Below, piece after piece: positions 6,666 through 48,746 of a stretch of 64,000 nucleotides of DNA. This DNA comes from Patescibacteria group bacterium (GTDB taxonomy: Bacteria > Patescibacteriota > Minisyncoccia > Minisyncoccales > JANBVM01), in contig JANBVL010000003.1 of assembly GCA_024238995.1 (NCBI GenBank), forward strand, positions 6,098-70,097, in the 5' to 3' direction. Position numbers and translations under genes: made by a program. Each line of letters opens with the position of its first letter. Within the stretch, counting starts at the first letter, position 1. Below the pieces are notes generated by a model, which saw only the letters and a list, made by a program, of their open reading frames with translations, ran no database searches and was not told the origin of the DNA.

Positions 6666-7424
6666 TTACATTGCTAAATACCCGCCATCAACAACTATTA
6701 TAGAGCCCGTCATATAAGAAGACTTGTCAGAAGCTAAAAACACAACTGCATTTGAAACTTCTTCTGGCTTTCCCATTCTGTGCATTGGGATCCTGGCTAA
6801 AGACTGTTCTAGAGTCTTTGGGTCTTGTTTTATCGCATCTACCATTGGAGTATCTATTGCTCCTGGTGCAATAGCATTAACTCTAATATTCAATGGTGTC
6901 AGTTCCAAAGACATTGCTTCTGTCATTGCAGTAATGCCTCCTTTTGAAGCGCAATAATGAACAATTTGAGCATAACCAACTCCAACCTGACCCATGGCAA
7001 TAGAGCTAATATTAATAATTGAGCCTGATTTTTGTTTTGCCATTTCTTTTGCACAAGCCTGAGCACATAAAAAATATCCTCTTAAATTAACTGCCATCGT
7101 TTTATCCCAATCCTGTTCAGTTAATTCTAAAAACGGCTTGAATTGTAAAATCCCAGCATTATTTACTAAAATATCTATTTTGCCAAACTCATCTAAAGTC
7201 TTTTTCACCATTCCATCAATTTCCTTTTTGCTTATAACATCACATTTCACTGCTACTGCCTGACCTCCTGAAGATTTAATTTCATCAGCCACTTTCTGAC
7301 AATCTTCTAATGATATGTCAGAAACAACTACTTTAGCGCCTTCTTTTGCCAAAGCCAAGGCATGAGTTCTTCCCATTCCTCTTCTTGCTCCTGTAACAAT
7401 TGCTATTTTATCTTTTAATTGCAT
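6666..7424 (-). CDS. short-chain dehydrogenase/reductase (FabG-like)
   Basis: 252 aa with TGARRGMG cofactor motif, NNAG, and catalytic YCASKGG (YxxxK). Confidence 0.85.
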   Translation of the reverse strand: MQLKDKIAIVTGARRGMGRTHALALAKEGAKVVVSDISLEDCQKVADEIKSSGGQAVAVKCDVISKKEIDGMVKKTLDEFGKIDILVNNAGILQFKPFLELTEQDWDKTMAVNLRGYFLCAQACAKEMAKQKSGSIINISSIAMGQVGVGYAQIVHYCASKGGITAMTEAMSLELTPLNIRVNAIAPGAIDTPMVDAIKQDPKTLEQSLARIPMHRMGKPEEVSNAVVFLASDKSSYMTGSIIVVDGGYLAM

Positions 7425-7492
7425 ATTTATTTATTAATTAAATTATTAAATCAACCTTTGAAAATTATTAATAGTATTTCATTAATTATATC

Positions 7493-8653
7493 TTATTTTA
7501 AAATTGTTAAAAGCTTCGTCGATTCAAGAGCTTTCTCAATCAATTCTTCAACATCAAGCTTTTTTTCTTCTGATTTTACCTGTTTTAAATCAGCTTTTGT
7601 CTCAACGCGGGCTGGTAAAAACCTGGCGCAGCAGTCTTGATGAGGAAGAATTGAAACATCAAAGGTGTCAATTTTCTTTGCTAAATCAATTATTTCTTCC
7701 TTATCAAATCCAATCAAAGGTCTTAGAATGGGCATATTCACTGCTTCTGAAATCACAAATATATTTTCTAAAGTCTGGGAAGCAACTTGACCGATACTAT
7801 CACCAGTAACAAGCGCCAAAGCTTTTTCTTTTTTCGCAACAACTTCAGCAATTTTCATCATTAATCTGCGGTAAAAAATGACACGAAGCCTAGCTGATAC
7901 TTTTAAAAGAATCTGTTTTTGAACATCAGCAAAAGGTATTAAATAAAGTTTTGAATTGAATTGAAACTTATTAAGAATTTTAACAATTCTTTTAACCTTG
8001 TCGATTGAAGCTTCATCTGTATAAGGACGGGCATGGAAATGAACAAAAATAGCTTTTACCCCTCTTTTCATTGTCAAAAAGCCAGCAACAGGCGAATCAA
8101 TCCCTCCTGATAACAAAACTACTGCCTTGTTCCCAACACCAACAGGTAAGCCACCATAAGCACTAATTTTCTCTGTGTATAAAAATGCATGATTCCTGGT
8201 TATTTCAATAAATAAAGTTATGTCTGGATTCTCCAGCTTAACTTTCTTTTTTAAATTCTTAACAATAAAAGCACCAACAGTTTCACTGACTTTCGGAGAT
8301 TTTAGAGGAAAATCCTTGTCAGATCTTTGAGTTCGAATCCTAAAAGTTTTAAATTTTTCTTGCTCTAAAATTTCAAGAGCTTTTTTATTAATGATTTTGA
8401 TTTCTGGTTTAACATTACAAGCGAAAATAAAAAACACCATTCCAAAAACATTTTTCAAAGATTTTTTAATCTTGTCTTTTTGCTTTAAGCCTGTATCAGT
8501 TAATTTCACAATTATTCTTCCTGAGATTCTTTTTACAAACTCAAAACTATCTTTTGGTAAAGATTTTTTAATGTTTTCAACTAATTTTTCTTCAAAAAAC
8601 TTTCTATTTTTCCCTTTTAATCCTATTTCGTGATAATGACAAACTATATACAT
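7493..8653 (-). CDS. thiI: tRNA 4-thiouridine synthase ThiI
   Basis: 386 aa with a THUMP-like N-terminal half and PP-loop SGGIDSPVA. Confidence 0.85.
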   Translation of the reverse strand: MYIVCHYHEIGLKGKNRKFFEEKLVENIKKSLPKDSFEFVKRISGRIIVKLTDTGLKQKDKIKKSLKNVFGMVFFIFACNVKPEIKIINKKALEILEQEKFKTFRIRTQRSDKDFPLKSPKVSETVGAFIVKNLKKKVKLENPDITLFIEITRNHAFLYTEKISAYGGLPVGVGNKAVVLLSGGIDSPVAGFLTMKRGVKAIFVHFHARPYTDEASIDKVKRIVKILNKFQFNSKLYLIPFADVQKQILLKVSARLRVIFYRRLMMKIAEVVAKKEKALALVTGDSIGQVASQTLENIFVISEAVNMPILRPLIGFDKEEIIDLAKKIDTFDVSILPHQDCCARFLPARVETKADLKQVKSEEKKLDVEELIEKALESTKLLTILK

Positions 8654-11397: not shown

Positions 11398-11811
11398 TTA
11401 TTTAATTAAATCAGCTAATGTTATTGAATTTAAAGTAGAATTTAAAGAATCCTGAACTTTTTGCCAAACAGAAACAGTTCTACAAACCTTTTTCCTAGGA
11501 CACTTGTATTTATTTTCTTTTTCAACAACAAGACACTGAACAGGAGCTATTGTTCCTTCTAATATCTTAATAATCTCACCTACTTTAATTTTTCTAGGAT
11601 TACGAGCCAAACAATATCCTCCTTTAATACCTCTTTTTGATTTAACAAGCTTGTTCTTTTCCAGTTTTGAAATTATTTTCTCTAAATAATCAAAAGAAAT
11701 ACCTTCTTCTTTTGAAATCTCTCTTAATGAAAAAACCTTGTCTTTTTTAAAGACATCTGCCAAAAAAGCCATTGCTCTTAATCCATATTGTGTTTTTTTG
11801 GAAATTCTCAT
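11398..11811 (-). CDS. Rrf2-family transcriptional regulator (IscR-like)
   Basis: The ORF-track start at 11817 is TTG. ATG at 11811 gives the canonical MRISKKTQYGLRAMAFLA N-terminus. It heads the nifS-nifU-mnmA-thiI operon. Confidence 0.85.
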   Translation of the reverse strand: MRISKKTQYGLRAMAFLADVFKKDKVFSLREISKEEGISFDYLEKIISKLEKNKLVKSKRGIKGGYCLARNPRKIKVGEIIKILEGTIAPVQCLVVEKENKYKCPRKKVCRTVSVWQKVQDSLNSTLNSITLADLIK

Positions 11812-11826
11812 ATTCAATAAAACTAT

Positions 11827-16714: not shown

Positions 16715-18136
16715 TTAGTCTTGAGATGCTTTTCTTCTCAGGAAAGCAGGTGCTTCCCAAAGTTTTTCTTTAGAAACTATCTCAGCCTCTTCATTTTCTA
16801 TGTCTTTTTTAATTTGCAATGCATTTTTCCTTACCCTATTTGACGTTAACGAAGCTTGAGACGTTTTTTCTAAAATAGGAACTTCTGACTTCTCAACTTT
16901 AATTTTAATTTTTCTTTTCTTTCTAATTAGTTTAACCTTTTTAATATTTTGTTTTTGCACTATTTTGGGCTGAGCTTTTGGTTTAACTTCTGATTCAATT
17001 TTTGTAATTATATCTTTTCCGTTACAACCTGTTGCCAATAAACTTATTTTTATTTTTGAAGATTTACTTCCACGAGAAACTCCAAAGATAATTTTTGCTT
17101 CTTTGCTTACTAATTTAGCAATAGATTCAGAAATGTGATTTACCTGAAGCAGGGAAAGATCACTCTGTCCTGAAATATTAAATACAACTCCTTTAGCACC
17201 ATCAATACCATAAGGATAAATTGGATAATTAATTATCTTATCAAGCGCATCTTTATCGTCATCTTTTGAAAGTTCCATTGAGTTTAAATAAGTCAGTTTT
17301 CCTTTGCCATCAAAAATAGTTTTTAAATCAGCAAAATCAATATTAATTATCCCAGCTTTATATATTATTTCAATCAAACCTTGAATGCTGTTTGTTAAGT
17401 GCTTGTTTATTGCTGATAAGGCTTTTTTTAACGGCGCACTTTTATCAACAATATGGAAAATTCTTTCATTTGGAATAACAGAAAAAGCATTTAATTCTGT
17501 TTTCAATTTTTCCAAAGATTTTTTAGCAGTATCCATTTTTTTCTCGCCTTCAAATTTAAAGGGCAAAGTAAAAATACCGTAAGTCAAATTATTCAAGTTC
17601 TTTGAAACTCTTGCAAAAATTGGAGCAGCTCCAGAACCCAATCCTCCTCCTAAACAAGCAACTAAAATAACTAAATCCTGACCTTCTAACATTTCCTTAA
17701 TCTTATCTCTTTCTTGCTTGGCAATTTCCTCACCCATAATGGAATTTGTTCCTGTTCCTAAGCCATGAGTCAAGGCTTCACCAAGCTGCCATTTTTTAAC
17801 CTTTTTACCTAAAGAATTTAAAGCTTTAATATCTGAATTTGCTGCATAAAAAGTAGTTCCTTTAATTCTTTGAGCGATTTCGGAAACAATAGAACTACCA
17901 CCGCCGCCAATTCCAATCAATCTGATTTTTATCTTTTTTATTGACTCTTCACCTTTTTCAATCTTTGTCTTTTTAGGCCTTCCTCTTTTCCTAGGTCGCC
18001 CTCTTCCTTTAGACCCTCCTGTCTTTTTAGGCCTTCCTCTTTTCCTAGGTCGCCCTCTTCCTTTTCTTGAAATAGCTTTTTTACGATAAATTCTTGATTT
18101 TCTCCTTTTTCTTGTTGTTTTTTTTCTTTTAACCAT
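16715..18136 (-). CDS. ftsZ: cell division protein FtsZ with N-terminal AT-hook-like basic repeats
   Basis: 473 aa. The tubulin/FtsZ core is marked by GIGGGGSS and GGGLGSGAAP. The C-terminal peptide is WEAPAFLRRK. The first ~60 residues carry four GRP motifs (GRGRPRKRGRPKK, twice). Confidence 0.9.
   Translation of the reverse strand: MVKRKKTTRKRRKSRIYRKKAISRKGRGRPRKRGRPKKTGGSKGRGRPRKRGRPKKTKIEKGEESIKKIKIRLIGIGGGGSSIVSEIAQRIKGTTFYAANSDIKALNSLGKKVKKWQLGEALTHGLGTGTNSIMGEEIAKQERDKIKEMLEGQDLVILVACLGGGLGSGAAPIFARVSKNLNNLTYGIFTLPFKFEGEKKMDTAKKSLEKLKTELNAFSVIPNERIFHIVDKSAPLKKALSAINKHLTNSIQGLIEIIYKAGIINIDFADLKTIFDGKGKLTYLNSMELSKDDDKDALDKIINYPIYPYGIDGAKGVVFNISGQSDLSLLQVNHISESIAKLVSKEAKIIFGVSRGSKSSKIKISLLATGCNGKDIITKIESEVKPKAQPKIVQKQNIKKVKLIRKKRKIKIKVEKSEVPILEKTSQASLTSNRVRKNALQIKKDIENEEAEIVSKEKLWEAPAFLRRKASQD
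17967..18064 (-). repeat. in-frame 54-bp tandem duplication encoding the FtsZ AT-hook pair
   Basis: 44 nt are identical at 17967-18010 and 21-18064 offset by 54 bp (18021-18064), i.e. 18 aa per unit (KTGGSKGRGRPRKRGRPK). Confidence 0.9.
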
Positions 18137-21267: not shown

Positions 21268-21273
21268 AATTTG

Positions 21274-21344
21274 CTGGAGGGCTAGGATTCGAACCTAGAT
21301 CCCAGGTGCCAGAAACCTGTCGCCTACCATTAGCATACCCTCCA
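21274..21344 (-). tRNA. tRNA-Gln (anticodon CUG)
   Basis: Folded by hand into a 71-nt cloverleaf. Acceptor stem UGGAGGG/CCCUCCA with the U1-A72 pair typical of bacterial tRNA-Gln. Anticodon stem-loop CAGGU-UUCUGGC-ACCUG. T-arm CUAGG-UUCGAAU-CCUAG. CCA is not encoded. Confidence 0.9.
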
Positions 21345-22976: not shown

Positions 22977-24037
22977 TTTTTAATTTAATTTCAGCTTCAA
23001 TAAATTCATCTAATTTGCCGTTTAGCACCTCATCTACTTGGGCAGTTTCAATGTTAGTTCTTAAATCTTTAACCAGCTTATATGGATGAAGCACATAACT
23101 TCTTATTTGATTTCCCCAGCTGGCAGAAGTTTTTTCACCTTTTACTTTGGAAACTTCTTTCTTCTGTTTCTCCTTATAGAACTTATAAAGCCGTGAATAA
23201 AGAACCTCTGTTGCCTTTTTTTTATTATTAGCCTGTGATCTTTCCGACTGACAGGACGCAATAATCTTAGTTGGTAAATGAGTAATCCTTACTGCTGTTT
23301 CACGCTTGTTAACATACTGACCCCCTGGACCTGATGCCCTGAAATACTCAGTCCTTAAATCTTCTGGTTTTACTTCAATATCTTTTTCATCAAGCTTTTT
23401 TACCTCAGGCATTACTTCCACTGAAGCAAAAGAAGTGTGTCTTAATTTTTTAGGAGAAAAGGGCGAAAGTCTGACTAATCTATGAGTCCCATTTTCATTT
23501 TTCAAAATTCCATAAGCAAACCTTCCTTTAATTTCCAGCGTCACTGATTTTGTACCAATTCTTCCTTCAGGTCCTCCTCCTTCGCCAAAAGATTGATCCA
23601 GTATTTTTATTTTAAAATCCTTGTCTTCACAATATCTTTCATACATTCTTAAAAGCATTGTTGCCCAGTCTTGAGCATCTTGTCCTCCAGCACCAGAATA
23701 AATTGATAAAATTGCATTTCCTTTGTCATATTTTCCAGAAAAAAGAACTTGAATCTCTTTTTCTTTTAATTTGCCTTCAATTTCTTCAATCTTTTCTTCA
23801 GTTTTAATATTTTCAATTTCTTTTTTTAATGAATCAAACTCAATTAATTCATCAGTTAATTGGCTGAATTCCTGATTTAATTCTATCGCTTTTTCTTTAT
23901 TTTTCCAAAGATCTGGATCTTGAACTTGTTTTTCTAGCTCTTTTAACCTTGTGCGCCTATTTTCAATGTCAAAGATAGTCCTCTAAAAAGAGGTGTTTAT
24001 TTTTTAAACCTTGAATTTTCTCACTTAAGTTTTCCAT
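22969..24037 (-). CDS. prfB: peptide chain release factor 2, requires programmed +1 frameshift
   Basis: Frame 0 runs from ATG 24037 (MENLSEKIQGLKNKHLFLEDYL) to the in-frame TGA at 23971-23969. The +1 frame runs from GAC at 23970 and was translated by hand with no stop down to 22969. It contains the SPF (RLSPFSPKK) and GGQ (SGPGGQYVN) motifs. The ORF track shows only the C-terminal 229 aa. Confidence 0.93.
23968..23983 (-). promoter_or_regulatory. RF2 autoregulatory +1 frameshift site
   Basis: The mRNA reads GAG GAC UAU CUU UGA C. This is the canonical CUU UGA C slippery/stop context with a purine-rich GAGGA element 3 nt upstream. Confidence 0.85.
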
Positions 24038-24085
24038 ATTAAAAACATTATCATAAATTTATGTAAAATAAAAGAGAAATTTTTG

Positions 24086-24158
24086 AGCCAGTGGTCAGGA
24101 TTGAACTGACGGCCTAATACTTACGAAGTATTTGCTCTACCAACTGAGCTACACTGGC
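24086..24158 (-). tRNA. tRNA-Thr (anticodon CGU)
   Basis: 73-nt cloverleaf: GCCAGUG-UA-GCUC-AGUUGGUA-GAGC-A-AAUAC-UUCGUAA-GUAUU-AGGCC-GUCAG-UUCAAUC-CUGAC-CACUGGC-U. Confidence 0.9.
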
Positions 24159-24165
24159 AGCTATA

Positions 24166-24236
24166 AGCAGGTGACGGGAATCGAACCCGCGTAACTTGCT
24201 TGGGAAGCAAGCACACTGCCATTATGTTACACCTGC
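24166..24236 (-). tRNA. tRNA-Gly (anticodon CCC)
   Basis: 71-nt cloverleaf with acceptor GCAGGUG/CACCUGC, anticodon arm CUUGC-UUCCCAA-GCAAG and T-loop UUCGAUU. Confidence 0.9.
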
Positions 24237-28295: not shown

Positions 28296-28649
28296 TCCTA
28301 ACAAGCCGGGTAATTACTCTTTATTGAAAAATAAAGGGAGGAAAGTCCGAACACTTACTCTCCATTTGTTGGGGGTTAAAAAGATAGCGGCTAACAGCCG
28401 TCGCTCTGGATAATATAACTAGAGTAGAGGTGCGAACAGAGACGTGTTAAGTTGAAAAACTTAGCAACCCGCAATAGCGGGATAGCCCTACAGCAATGTA
28501 GGGGTGAAACGGCTAAATCCTTATCAGGTGCAAGAACAAATCTTTTGGTAAACCCAAAAGAGCAAAGTAGTTCGCATGAGCTCTGAGGCAACTCAAAGCC
28601 AAGATAAATGATTACCTAAAACAGAATTCGGCTTATGGGCTTGTTAGGA
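28296..28649 (+). ncRNA. rnpB: RNase P RNA, bacterial type A
   Basis: Universal motifs GGAGGAAAGUCCGAAC (CR-I/P4) and ACAGAAUUCGGCUUAU (CR-V) are present. P1 pairs UCCUAACAAGCC (28296-28307) with GGCUUGUUAGGA (28638-28649). Confidence 0.9.
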
Positions 28650-28650
28650 T

Positions 28651-28686
28651 AACCAAAAACCGCGTCGTTACACGTGGTTTTTGGTT
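28651..28686. terminator. bidirectional hairpin terminator between rnpB (+) and rnhA (-)
   Basis: A 14-bp stem AACCAAAAACCGCG / CGUGGUUUUUGGUU (one G-U pair) with an 8-nt loop. The U-rich 3' arm is present in either orientation. Confidence 0.6.
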
Positions 28687-44859: not shown

Positions 44860-44941
44860 CGACTAGGAATGGAGTTCTAAAAACAGAACCGCACTCACTA
44901 ATTCAATATTAACAATATTTTTGTTTTTTGTCAATACTAGG

Positions 44942-46657
44942 CTAATCAGACAACTGATTGATTTTAGTTCTTGTCATTGGTCCAACAAAACCAGTTCCTG
45001 ATTCTAAACCTATTGGAGTTAAAATCTCACTGGAATATTTGTCTTGAAAACGGATAACGGCTTGTTTTGTTAAAGAAAGAAAGTTTCCTGTGATTAAACC
45101 TTCAGGATAAATGTCTGTTCCTTGAGATTTTAAAAATTCCTGCAAACATTTTATTTCATTATCATTTGTCATGCCATAATAAAGGTTTTTATCAAAACTA
45201 GTACAATCTCCATTTGACACTGAACCTGTGCCTAAAAGCGCATCTAATTGCGCTTGAAGTCTTGTTATCTCTTTTCTAAGTTCATCAATTTGAGCTAAAA
45301 GCTTAGCTGTTAATTCATCTTCTTGCGGCTCTTCTGATTCTTCGACAGTAGAAGCTGACCAGAAAAAAGAAATAGAAGGTTCTGAATCTAAAAAATTAGA
45401 AGTTTTATTTTGAGCAGAAGGAATAATTGTTAAAGAAATATTTGAAGAACCGAATCCAGAAACATAGATATTTGCCTTGCCATCACTATCTGGTTCTAAA
45501 AAAGTAATTGATAGTTCGCCTTGATCATTTTGAACTAAATAAGGGATCTTGAACTTAGTCAAAGAAGAAGTTATAAATTCCACTTTCAAATCTCCGTGAT
45601 TGCCACCAATGAATTTATGCCAGTTTCCTGCCCAGTCTTTAGTTGTATTTGTAACTGATAAGGTGCTTTTTCCAATTGAAGGAAGATAATTGATTAAAGG
45701 ATTAAGTTTCAGATTTTTTAAGTTGTTATTTAAATAACAATATTTATTAAATAAAGAACAATCATTAATTAAAATAGCAATGGTCCAATCAGTAAAAATC
45801 TGACTAAAATCTTCCTCAAATCCAGCTTTCATTAATGCAGAATTTAAACTCTGGATGCCTGTCTGCGAACTTTTTAAGGAATCTATTAAAATCCTTACAC
45901 CATAATGGTCAACTAAATAATGTATAAATAAACTTGCCACCCCATAATCATAAGAAAGATTTCTCCATTCAGTTAAAGAATCATAAGGTTTGTCTAAAAA
46001 ATTCTGTATCCTTCTTTGTAAATCACTTCCTTCAAAAACTTCATTATATCCTAACATGCTTGATACATATTCTGAACGCGCTTCATTTAACCAAATATCT
46101 TCAGAAACCCCATAAATTTTTTCTTTCTGATTAAAAGAAATCAAATGCTGAAACTCATGAGCTAAAAAGCTTTTTGCTAAATCACTACCTAAATTCAAAG
46201 CATTAAAATAAATCATCTCTTTCTCGTTTGAAGTAAGGATTTGAGATTTTGGAAATTCATCAGCGCTGTTAAAATAACTGCCGACCTGCTCATTCATTGG
46301 ATGCATTAAGATTGTAATCCTTAAGTCTTTATCTATCCCTGGCTTCCATTCAGAGCCAAAATTCTGAGTTAAAACAGGATAAATATTGGTTGTGAATTCT
46401 TGAGACAAGGCAGTTATTGCGTTATTCATTTCAAACTGTTCGTTTTCTTCTAATCCATCCCACCAGCCATTATCTACATACCAATATGCTGTTTGGGAAA
46501 TTTCTCTTAAAGTAGCCTGAATTTGTTCTCTTTTTAAAGAATCATAAGAAGATTCAATATAAAAACTAGCTGAATCCCCTAGGACTTGTTCAGCTTTAAC
46601 AAAAATAGGTAAAAAAACAATGATTAAAATGATTGAAATAAAAGTTAAATTTTTCAT
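44942..46657 (-). CDS. secreted zinc-metallopeptidase-like protein with C-terminal peptidoglycan-binding domain
   Basis: 571 aa with signal peptide MKNLTFISIILIIVFLPIFVKA. The gluzincin-like motif is HEFQH-x20-E within WLNEARSEY. A coiled coil follows, then a PG_binding_1-like C-terminus (CLQEFLKSQG..GNFLSLTKQAVIRFQDKY). Confidence 0.6.
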   Translation of the reverse strand: MKNLTFISIILIIVFLPIFVKAEQVLGDSASFYIESSYDSLKREQIQATLREISQTAYWYVDNGWWDGLEENEQFEMNNAITALSQEFTTNIYPVLTQNFGSEWKPGIDKDLRITILMHPMNEQVGSYFNSADEFPKSQILTSNEKEMIYFNALNLGSDLAKSFLAHEFQHLISFNQKEKIYGVSEDIWLNEARSEYVSSMLGYNEVFEGSDLQRRIQNFLDKPYDSLTEWRNLSYDYGVASLFIHYLVDHYGVRILIDSLKSSQTGIQSLNSALMKAGFEEDFSQIFTDWTIAILINDCSLFNKYCYLNNNLKNLKLNPLINYLPSIGKSTLSVTNTTKDWAGNWHKFIGGNHGDLKVEFITSSLTKFKIPYLVQNDQGELSITFLEPDSDGKANIYVSGFGSSNISLTIIPSAQNKTSNFLDSEPSISFFWSASTVEESEEPQEDELTAKLLAQIDELRKEITRLQAQLDALLGTGSVSNGDCTSFDKNLYYGMTNDNEIKCLQEFLKSQGTDIYPEGLITGNFLSLTKQAVIRFQDKYSSEILTPIGLESGTGFVGPMTRTKINQLSD

Positions 46658-46682: not shown

Positions 46683-48683
46683 CTAATCTAATTCAATGCC
46701 TAAAGCTTTGTAAATTTCAGTTACTTTTTTAACATCTTCTGCGTTATTTCTCCAATTATAGCCAGCTGCTTCTGCATCTTTAACTTTCTCAAGGGCTTGC
46801 TCGTATTGACCTGTTATGTAATAAACCGTGGCTAAATACCAATGGGATCGGGCCATTCTTGGCTCCAATTCAATTGCCTTTTTAAACAAATCAAAAGTTG
46901 CTTGACTTTCACCTTGCGCCAGCTTCACTTCAGCTAAATGCCAGTAACCCTGCTGATTGGTAGGGCTTAATTCTATTGCTTTTTCAAAAACCCGTTCTGC
47001 TGAATCCAATTTTTCCTTGTCAAGACTAAAACGATAATCAGTGAAATAAAGTCTGCCTAAAAAAAGATAGGGGCGGAAATCTAAAGAATTCTTTCTAATG
47101 CTTTCCTCCATTTGCTCTTCACCGATATCAAAAGCTAGTTTCACAGCCTCTTTATCATTTTGAGAATTAAAAGTAGACTGATAAATTTTCAAAGCAAACT
47201 GTTCTCTAATTTCATATTTTTCCATTAAAGTGTTTAATGATTTTTTATAAGCCACCGTCATCTCTTCTGGATTATCAGAAGCAATAACTATTTCAACAAC
47301 ACTTACAGCGCTTGAAAATGGCTGGATATTGCCAAAATAAAGAAGCAAAGTAGTTAATGATATGATAAGGCCAAAAACAATATTTCGTCCCAATCCTTCT
47401 TTAATAAAATTAGATGGCTCTTCAGCTGAATCTGAAAAGGAATATTTTTCTTCATTTATTAAAAAACTAACAAATCCTAAACTTAAAAAGAATACTGTAT
47501 AGCTTGAAATCATATCAAAAACAAGCAGATTTTGGGCAAAGTAAATAATTAATAAAGCTGCCATTATTAAACAAGGCATCATGTTTTCTTCTTTTTTTAA
47601 ACAGATTTTAAAAAGTGCGAAAATGGAAACTGCGAAAATCAATAAATGACTTAAAAGCCCGATTACCCCACTATTTACCAAAGTATCTAAGACAATATTA
47701 TGAACCCTGTCAAACCAAATCTCTCCCCCGCACTCTGATAGGAATACACAGGGATTAAAGAATTTAGTAAAAACTACATTAAAATTCTCTGGCCCCCAAC
47801 CAAAGATTGGTTTTTCTAAAAATCCTTTCCAGCCTTTTTCCCAAACAACAAATCTTGGCTTCATGTCTTTTAAGACGTTTCCAACTCTGTCTTTAAGAAA
47901 AGAGGGTTGAATAACCAGTGCAGCAATGGCTAAAATCACTAAACAAAGAATCAAACCAGTTCCTATTTTTTGAAGCTTTTTTTTCTTAGAAAACAGTAAA
48001 TAACCCAATAATATTAGAAACAGACCAAACCAAAAAGAAATAATTGCTCCTCTAGCAGTAGATATTAATAAGGTTGGAATCAAGAAAAGCAGAGATATTC
48101 CAGAAAAAATTCGTAAAAATGAGCTTTTTTTTGTTAAGAACAAGACTAAAGCAAAGAAAATGTCGAAAAGCAGATAAGCTGCCAGAAAAGAGGTATTGCC
48201 AATTGCTCCTCCTCCTCTGCTAGAAAGTTGACTGTTAGTTAAGACACCAATACAAAGAATAATTCCCACCAACACTGACACAGCAAGAATCTTTTCCCAA
48301 TCTTCTCTTTTTTTGAAAGTGCTTGTTAGAATAACAAAAAAAGCTAAGAGGTGAAGAAAAGTAAAAATCCCTGTCATTCTTTCGTAAGTACTCCAAAAAC
48401 TCCTTTCAAAATTAATACCCAAAACAGATGTTACTATCAATACAAAAATGAAGGTCAAAATAGCAGTAAGTATAATATTAGGTTTTGGCCGATAACGAGG
48501 AAACAATAATATCAGGATTAGATAAGCAGCCAGCATAATCTCCACTAAAATCCTGAAATAAATAGTCTTTGGAGTAACAAAAGGAAAAAAAGAATAACGG
48601 TAAACAATTACTGGAGCAAACAAGGCTAAATATGCTCCTGTTTTGATTATGAAAAGACAAATTTTTTTCAATGCTTGAATCAT
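46683..48683 (-). CDS. O-antigen ligase family (Wzy_C) membrane protein fused to C-terminal TPR repeats
   Basis: 666 aa with about 12 TM and the GWGPENF motif after the ligase loop. The C-terminal ~200 aa are TPR-like (AIELSPTNQQGYWHLAEVKLAQG.., AIELEPRMARSHWYLATVYYITGQYEQA). Confidence 0.75.
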   Translation of the reverse strand: MIQALKKICLFIIKTGAYLALFAPVIVYRYSFFPFVTPKTIYFRILVEIMLAAYLILILLFPRYRPKPNIILTAILTFIFVLIVTSVLGINFERSFWSTYERMTGIFTFLHLLAFFVILTSTFKKREDWEKILAVSVLVGIILCIGVLTNSQLSSRGGGAIGNTSFLAAYLLFDIFFALVLFLTKKSSFLRIFSGISLLFLIPTLLISTARGAIISFWFGLFLILLGYLLFSKKKKLQKIGTGLILCLVILAIAALVIQPSFLKDRVGNVLKDMKPRFVVWEKGWKGFLEKPIFGWGPENFNVVFTKFFNPCVFLSECGGEIWFDRVHNIVLDTLVNSGVIGLLSHLLIFAVSIFALFKICLKKEENMMPCLIMAALLIIYFAQNLLVFDMISSYTVFFLSLGFVSFLINEEKYSFSDSAEEPSNFIKEGLGRNIVFGLIISLTTLLLYFGNIQPFSSAVSVVEIVIASDNPEEMTVAYKKSLNTLMEKYEIREQFALKIYQSTFNSQNDKEAVKLAFDIGEEQMEESIRKNSLDFRPYLFLGRLYFTDYRFSLDKEKLDSAERVFEKAIELSPTNQQGYWHLAEVKLAQGESQATFDLFKKAIELEPRMARSHWYLATVYYITGQYEQALEKVKDAEAAGYNWRNNAEDVKKVTEIYKALGIELD

Positions 48684-48689
48684 TCAATT

Positions 48690-48717
48690 ATTTTAGCCAA
48701 TATGTAAGATATTGCAA
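48690..48717 (-). promoter_or_regulatory. promoter of the ligase gene, leaderless geometry, shared -35
   Basis: On the minus strand: TTGCAA (48717-48712), 16 bp, TAAAAT (48695-48690), 6 nt, then ATG (48683). Confidence 0.55.
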
Positions 48718-48740
48718 ATTTTAACGCTTTTTACTAAAAT
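48712..48740 (+). promoter_or_regulatory. promoter of the plus-strand glycan operon, leaderless geometry, shared -35
   Basis: TTGCAA (48712-48717), 17 bp, TAAAAT (48735-48740), 6 nt, then ATG (48747). Confidence 0.6.
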
Positions 48741-48746
48741 ATATCT

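Follow-up and report, generated by a model that had tools for sequence, protein, structure and literature searches.

How two divergent transcription units can be started from an intergenic gap of only 63 bp is the question raised by a locus in the window, i.e., in the stretch of 64,000 nucleotides analyzed here (GC content 32%). The closest relatives of the window are genomes of Candidatus Nealsonbacteria (Patescibacteria/CPR), with 90% protein identity between the window and the complete genome CP179889.1 (0.65 Mb). Leftwards from the gap, a membrane protein of the Wzy_C family is encoded, and rightwards a polyprenyl-phosphate sugar transferase of the Bac_transf family, for which an exact-sequence database lookup gave no match. 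The transferase gene heads an operon that reaches to position ~58167, with intergenic gaps of -38 to 74 nt. According to Pfam, the transferase is followed by a GT2 protein, a B12-binding radical SAM enzyme, a methyltransferase and a second GT2 protein, and the later genes encode a second radical SAM enzyme, an unknown protein and a Wzx-like flippase. The gene content of both divergent units thus points to two arms of one Wzx/Wzy-type surface-glycan pathway. Note that the leftward gene had originally been called a ligase gene; this stands as a family label (Pfam Wzy_C) but not as a specific function, as Wzy_C spans polymerases, ligases and O-oligosaccharyltransferases. Relatives of the locus were gathered by pattern scans of genome and metagenome collections, which yielded 73 loci. 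An Rfam search revealed no RNA family in or near the gap. Elsewhere, the window carries a bacterial class A RNase P RNA (115 bits; 28298-28651, plus strand, within the 471-bp gap 28226/28698) and three tRNA genes (21273-21344, 24085-24158 and 24166-24236, minus strand).

Features of the divergent gap and of its flanking genes (positions in the window)
Feature	Position	Strand	Remark
Wzy_C (O-antigen polymerase/ligase family) membrane protein, 666 aa, C-terminal TPR repeats	46683-48683	-	Pfam Wzy_C 6.4e-16 and TPR families
ORF downstream of the Wzy_C gene, 25 nt on	44942-46657	-	ORF list
Start codon of the minus-strand gene, CAT on the plus strand	48681-48683	-	predicted mRNA 5' end
Left discriminator tcaatt (aattga on the minus strand)	48684-48689	-	6 nt, from -10 to ATG
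Leftward -10, atttta = TAAAAT on the minus strand	48690-48695	-	sequence read
Spacer of the leftward promoter, 16 bp	48696-48711	.	holds AATAT-N5-ATATT and a -10-like TAAGAT (+)
Palindromic TTGCAA, predicted -35 element for both directions	48712-48717	.	sequence read
Spacer of the rightward promoter, 17 bp	48718-48734	.	sequence read
Rightward -10, TAAAAT	48735-48740	+	its TAA doubles as in-frame stop
Right discriminator atatct, 6 nt	48741-48746	+	sequence read
Start codon ATG of the plus-strand gene	48747	+	sequence read
Bac_transf polyprenyl-phosphate sugar transferase (initiating enzyme), 434 aa	48747-50051	+	Pfam

The original prediction had read the whole gap as CAT-6-ATTTTA-16-TTGCAA-17-TAAAAT-6-ATG, and this parse of positions 48684-48746 is exact to the base. 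TTGCAA is the sole palindromic hexamer that gives TTG from both 5' ends. It matches the -35 consensus in 4/6 positions and lies 16 and 17 bp from its two -10 boxes, which both match their consensus in 5/6 positions, including A at position 2 and T at position 6; each promoter scores only 9/12 against the consensus in our promoter scan. The -35 boxes of other promoters in the window are of the TTG type as well (TTGACC, TTGACA, TTGTAA, TTGTCA). For the minus-strand promoter, a second register, TTTGCA with a 17-nt spacer, fits equally well as TTGCAA with a 16-nt spacer, so that the two -35 elements either coincide or overlap by 5/6 bp. The -10 boxes are 39 bp and the predicted start sites 64 bp apart. 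Furthermore, an in-frame TGA immediately precedes the minus-strand ATG (at -3) and the TAA within the rightward -10 box is in frame 12 nt before the plus-strand ATG; the frame of the latter opens at -9. Therefore, neither start codon can lie further upstream. As each -10 box ends 6 nt before an ATG, transcription is predicted to start at its A or within ~2 nt. Counting from the plus-strand -10 box, the A of ATG comes seventh, with a T before it, which is a favoured context for initiation; the minus-strand ATG is preceded by a purine, and transcription possibly starts 1-2 nt upstream of this ATG.

The gap is thus probably a compact back-to-back pair of sigma-70-type promoters that share TTGCAA and give leaderless transcripts on both sides. 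RNA polymerase would use TTGCAA together with either TAAAAT, in opposite directions, and would initiate at the A of either start codon or at most ~2 nt from it; the resulting leaderless mRNAs, that of the Wzy_C gene leftwards and that of the transferase operon rightwards, would be translated without a Shine-Dalgarno (SD) sequence, on which no gene start of this genome appears to rely. We infer the use of these elements by polymerase, the exact starts, leaderless translation and any competition between polymerases from the DNA sequence. The proposal of two sigma-70-type promoters on one palindromic TTGCAA (or on -35 boxes overlapping by 5/6 bp) is supported by geometry, rarity and conservation, and the promoters are predicted ones. 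For the further proposal that transcription begins at or next to the A of ATG, the 6-nt geometry is present on both sides and conserved, which makes leaderless transcripts a strong prediction.

The layout is kept in close relatives and in the locus L030 (72% amino acid identity), while the spacers drift; in this comparison, which had originally been suggested as a check, the architectural reading thus held up. The alignment of close relatives comprised nine sequences with a 63-bp gap (the window, L001, L002, L024-L028 and L032), which are interdependent, so that the sample effectively represents one clade plus L030. In these nine sequences, only one of the 18 columns of the three hexamers is variable (TAAAAT to TAAGAT in the leftward -10 box of L026), compared with 13/33 spacer columns (left 6/16, right 7/17), 2/12 discriminator columns and 50/80 third codon positions in the first 80 transferase codons. 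Variation in the hexamers is thus lower than in the spacers (p = 0.009) and at the third codon positions (p = 7e-6). Both discriminators are fixed at 6 nt, the left one being invariant and the right one variable in 2/6 columns. TTGCAA is invariant across the ten sequences of the close set and L030. The rightward -10 box is invariant in the same sequences, and the leftward one is kept in 8/9 and in L030; both genes start with ATG in every relative. L030 has a gap of 65 bp, CAT-8-ATTTTA-16-TTGCAA-16-TAAAAT-7-ATG, in which all 18 hexamer bases are retained and roughly a third (~35%) of the spacer bases differ. Two other -10-like hexamers in the gap, TAAGAT (plus strand, 48705-48710) and TAAAAT (minus strand, 48718-48723), vary among the relatives; they were rejected as promoters and serve as an internal negative control. 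Conservation runs 3-4 nt past TTGCAA on each side, forming the block ATATTGCAAATTTT, and in the AATAT-N5-ATATT repeat of the left spacer the arms are conserved and the loop is variable.

The N-terminus of the Wzy_C/TPR protein differs among otherwise close relatives, its first 10-20 residues being replaced or extended (window 48624-48683; L026-L028, L032). Indels alter it right after the ATG: the window protein starts with MIQALKKICL and that of L026 with MYKKNKQPENRYLEKTCL. Beside this changing N-terminus, CAT, tcaatt and atttta are invariant, and the ATG has the same place in all nine sequences. The distance between ATG and -10 box is thus fixed through N-terminal indels, and the ATG appears to be bound to the promoter more than to the protein. 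On the other side, the first ATG is the sole start candidate of the transferase gene in L026-L028.

The divergent gene pair persists in farther relatives, with gaps of 45-241 bp that cannot be aligned. Upstream of the transferase gene, similar arrangements recur independently: we found TTGATT-17-TAAACT-6-ATG (L031 and L033), TTGAAT-17-TAAGAT-7-ATG (L034), TTGTAT-17-TAAAAT-7-ATG (L008, L035 and L036), TAAAAT-6-ATG (L037) and TATAAT-9-ATG (L004 and L029). The full transferase pattern has a null rate of ~0.01 per lineage in shuffles, and its presence in at least four of eight lineages corresponds to a binomial probability of 3e-6. Upstream of the Wzy_C gene, the elements are TTTACA-17-TAAAAT, 14-18 nt from ATG (L003, L004 and L031), TTGTGA-17-TAAAAT at 15 nt (L034) and TTGTAT-17-TAAAAT at 13 nt (L008). 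The distances of 13-18 nt between -10 box and Wzy_C start codon in these sister lineages imply short leaders. A relative with 57% identity carries the same gene pair around a gap of only 45 bp (L008, 3935-3979; same in L035 and L036), which contains a perfect 10-bp inverted repeat, TTGTATTTTA-N13-TAAAATACAA. This gap reads as two interdigitated promoters, each -35 box overlapping the -10 box of the other, and would be another answer to the space constraint. As the promoters of the sister lineages are separate or interdigitated, sharing of the -35 box with both sides leaderless appears to be a derived state of one small clade. Still farther away within the CPR, Kuenenbacteria and other groups have promoters of the extended -10 type, followed by leaders of 8-30 nt.

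It had been noted originally that neither start codon is preceded by an SD sequence. Both starts indeed lack one; as evidence, this does not count, since SD cores are present at 5/52 gene starts of the window versus 5.2 expected from random ATGs. With SD cores at chance level genome-wide, their absence from the 63-bp gap is not diagnostic; internal genes of this genome, too, are normally preceded by A-rich DNA without an SD sequence. The release factor 2 gene (~23660-24050, minus strand) contains the classical programmed +1 frameshift (...LEDYL* followed by CTT TGA C), with the shift site CTTTGAC at ~23974 and an SD-like GAGGAC-TAT before it; the anti-SD of the ribosome thus seems functional despite the chance-level SD cores. 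The established signature of leaderless transcription in bacteria is a Pribnow box 6-8 nt from the start codon (PMC6028130). In the gap, this distance is 6 nt on both sides, and it is 7 and 8 nt in L030.

The same geometry is found at ftsZ (16715-18136, minus strand), where the near-consensus TTGACC-17-TATACT-6-ATG is exactly kept in six genomes, i.e., in the window and in the five syntenic contigs retrieved for comparison (L074-L078), at 59-84% FtsZ identity. The bases of spacer and discriminator change between these genomes and the DNA further upstream cannot be aligned. FtsZ has a basic N-terminal extension with repeated GRPRKRGRPKK (AT-hook-like) motifs, and its tubulin domain begins at residue 70; conservation of this extension at the protein level identifies the first ATG as the start. 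A leadered contrast to ftsZ is provided by the gene of an Rrf2-family regulator (11398-11817, minus strand) that precedes cysteine desulfurase/NifU genes. Its promoter, TTGACA-18-TATACT, is equally conserved, except in L078 (best match TTGACA-16-TATATT), whereas the length of its leader wanders between 29 and 40 nt in the window and L074-L078. A fixed distance of 6 nt from -10 box to ATG is what a leaderless constraint predicts, and its presence at ftsZ in six genomes indicates that the leaderless geometry recurs in the Nealsonbacteria lineage. In the window, ~4 of ~25 transcription units have this geometry, and others have leaders of 28-43 nt. Our literature search for leaderless genes in Patescibacteria/CPR found incidental mentions and no paper reporting them. 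Beside ftsZ, a thioredoxin-reductase-like gene in L078 (12296-14395, CP061210.1) is split by a LAGLIDADG intein (Pfam Intein_splicing), and in L077 a free-standing ORF nearby (6965-7789) has a weak LAGLIDADG match.

Could such an arrangement be due to chance, given that AT-rich DNA readily yields TAAAAT and TTGnnn and that the parse may have been picked for its appeal? Hexamer matches alone are no evidence: a generic promoter and terminator scan of the 46-51 kb region revealed 19 promoter-like sites compared with 19.0 ± 4.3 in shuffles, i.e., shuffle level at 32% GC, and -10-like hexamers are common 0-4 nt upstream of many starts owing to the A/T-rich upstream regions. We therefore scored the full geometry (-35 box with at least 4/6 matches, spacer of 16-18, -10 box with at least 5/6 matches including A2 and T6, exactly 6 nt, ATG). 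It is present at 5/1692 ATGs of the window, namely at 4/52 gene starts versus 1/1640 other ATGs, which is a 137-fold enrichment at gene starts (Fisher p = 3.9e-6). The four gene starts are those of the Wzy_C, transferase, FtsZ and enolase genes, and the fifth ATG heads a 3-codon ORF. Enolase was discarded as a second leaderless example, since no relative beyond the closest one retains its TAGAAT-6-ATG and eno directly follows the upstream gene elsewhere. In a simulation of 200,000 random 63-mers of intergenic dinucleotide composition, set between CAT and ATG, the one-sided pattern had a frequency of 1.4e-3 and the two-sided one of ~1e-5. The pattern of three hexamers is found only once in the window, where 0.19 matches would be expected if up to two mismatches are allowed. 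This rarity, the strong differential conservation among relatives, the retention of the pattern in L030 despite its diverged spacers and the recurrence of the same geometry at ftsZ make chance a highly improbable explanation.

More serious, and still unlikely, is the possibility that leaderless transcription is limited to the rightward promoter and that the mirror symmetry is partly coincidental, the Wzy_C gene being transcribed from elsewhere, either from the weaker TAGATA-18-TAAAAT, whose -10 box at 48718-48723 would give a ~28-nt leader, or from a promoter within the transferase gene. In its favour, leaderless geometry is found again at the transferase gene of at least four lineages that cannot be aligned, whereas at the Wzy_C gene it is confined to the clade of the window, with 13-18 nt in sister lineages; moreover, the purine at -1 on the minus side is the less favoured start context, and a second minus-strand promoter candidate is in fact present in the gap. 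However, the alternative -10 box drifts to GAAAAT or CAAAAT in relatives, is not accompanied by a TTG-type -35 box and has become TGAAAT in L030, with loss of the essential A at position 2. The left -10 box with its discriminator is as conserved as the right one, the discriminator being invariant and thus above the adjacent coding sequence, and the Wzy_C ATG remains anchored to the -10 box through the N-terminal indels. Somewhat less probable still is the explanation that ATATTGCAAATTTT and AATAT-N5-ATATT form the operator of a regulator and that the promoters lie elsewhere and give AT-rich, SD-less leaders. The conserved flanks of TTGCAA and the conserved arms around a variable loop of the repeat would fit such an operator, and an SD-less leader would still be translatable here, where SD-less, A-rich upstream regions are usual. 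With 63 bp between the two start codons, another promoter would have to lie within the opposite gene. There are -10-like sites within the flanking genes (e.g., TGnTAGAAT at 48327, plus strand), but no promoter candidate of at least 9/12 within ~600 nt (plus) or ~900 nt (minus). An operator also leaves the 16-17 bp spacings, the 6-8 nt to both ATGs and the identical ftsZ geometry unexplained. Furthermore, AATAT-N5-ATATT is not clearly enriched in the window (2 sites, at 48699-48713 in the left spacer and at 44905-44919 in the gap upstream of murB, versus 0.58 expected), and the extended TTGCAA block gave no support for a regulon, with 4 sites versus 3.5 expected. A local operator at the repeat or at the extended TTGCAA block, instead of or besides a -35 function, could be present.

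If the gap is a pair of promoters sharing TTGCAA, two polymerases might compete for it. A textbook RNA polymerase footprint covers -55 to +20; two such footprints would overlap by ~47 bp including the -35 box, and simultaneous binding of two holoenzymes is therefore unlikely. From this geometry only, expression of the two units had been proposed to be "mutually exclusive or tightly balanced", which is probably an overstatement. The -35 boxes coincide or overlap by 5/6 bp, as in overlapping back-to-back promoters. For E. coli promoters that overlap, basal activity was too low for competition, and interference was seen only upon strong activation of one direction (PMC12825309). For modest promoters serving one common pathway, a switch between the two directions is less plausible than compact co-expression, and the likely outcome would be compact constitutive co-expression of the two glycan-pathway arms from one shared determinant. 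It is doubtful that TTGCAA acts as a time-shared docking site, which sigma region 4 would occupy in one orientation at a time so that the two units fire alternately. If it did, the shared -35 box would fix the ratio of Wzy_C to transferase operon or anticorrelate them from cell to cell, and the gap would be a minimal 63-bp module for bidirectional expression that arose by intergenic compression in a streamlined CPR genome, with SD-led initiation abandoned.

Several known systems share parts of this arrangement. Back-to-back divergent promoters with a leaderless transcript are found in phage lambda (PRM/PR, with leaderless cI mRNA from PRM and start sites ~82 bp apart) and in Tn1721 (tetR/tetA, with leaderless tetR mRNA); in these cases each promoter has a -35 box of its own, a leader is missing on one side only and control is mainly exerted through repressor operators. 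At mtrR/mtrCDE of Neisseria gonorrhoeae, as in the gap studied here, sigma-70 promoters on opposite strands are placed in a short region with adjacent or overlapping -35 hexamers, and the authors proposed that a base change in one -35 hexamer moves polymerase to the other promoter (bioRxiv 10.1101/448712). There, however, two neighbouring -35 boxes take the place of the single palindromic hexamer, the transcripts are not described as leaderless and the region binds MtrR and MtrA, whereas here both -10 boxes abut the start codons. The bidirectional promoters studied by Warman and Grainger likewise have symmetrical core elements that allow polymerase to bind in either orientation, one binding event excluding the other (PMC12825309, bioRxiv 10.1101/2020.01.31.928960). 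This family uses one pseudo-symmetrical -10 element for both directions, with a -35 box on either side and starts 18 bp (also 10 or 23 bp) apart. A model with a shared -10 element was rejected for the gap, which has two separate -10 boxes 39 bp apart and starts 64 bp apart. With the leaderless units of Actinobacteria and Deinococcus (GeneMarkS-2 group C), the locus has in common the Pribnow box 6-8 nt upstream (PMC6028130), the position as first gene in an operon, the lack of an SD sequence and the 5' AUG (PMC6028130, PMC4007540). It differs from them in belonging to CPR/Patescibacteria, with 32% GC, and in that only ~4 of ~25 units of the window have this geometry. A literature phrase search on overlapping -35 regions ("35 regions overlap") gave no match.

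The gap is thus a combination of known parts, overlapping divergent promoters and leaderless genes, put together in an unusually economical way in an understudied phylum, and is no new mechanism. Together with ftsZ, it provides sequence-level evidence for canonical -35/-10 promoters and leaderless mRNAs of some key genes of Nealsonbacteria; in the literature on Patescibacteria, we found no account of canonical promoters with leaderless mRNAs for key genes. In practical terms, the finding backs the start codons as annotated, and the gap could serve as a natural cassette of minimal size for bidirectional expression. It also gives a concrete model of how a reduced CPR genome of ~0.65 Mb may pack two transcription units into 63 bp.
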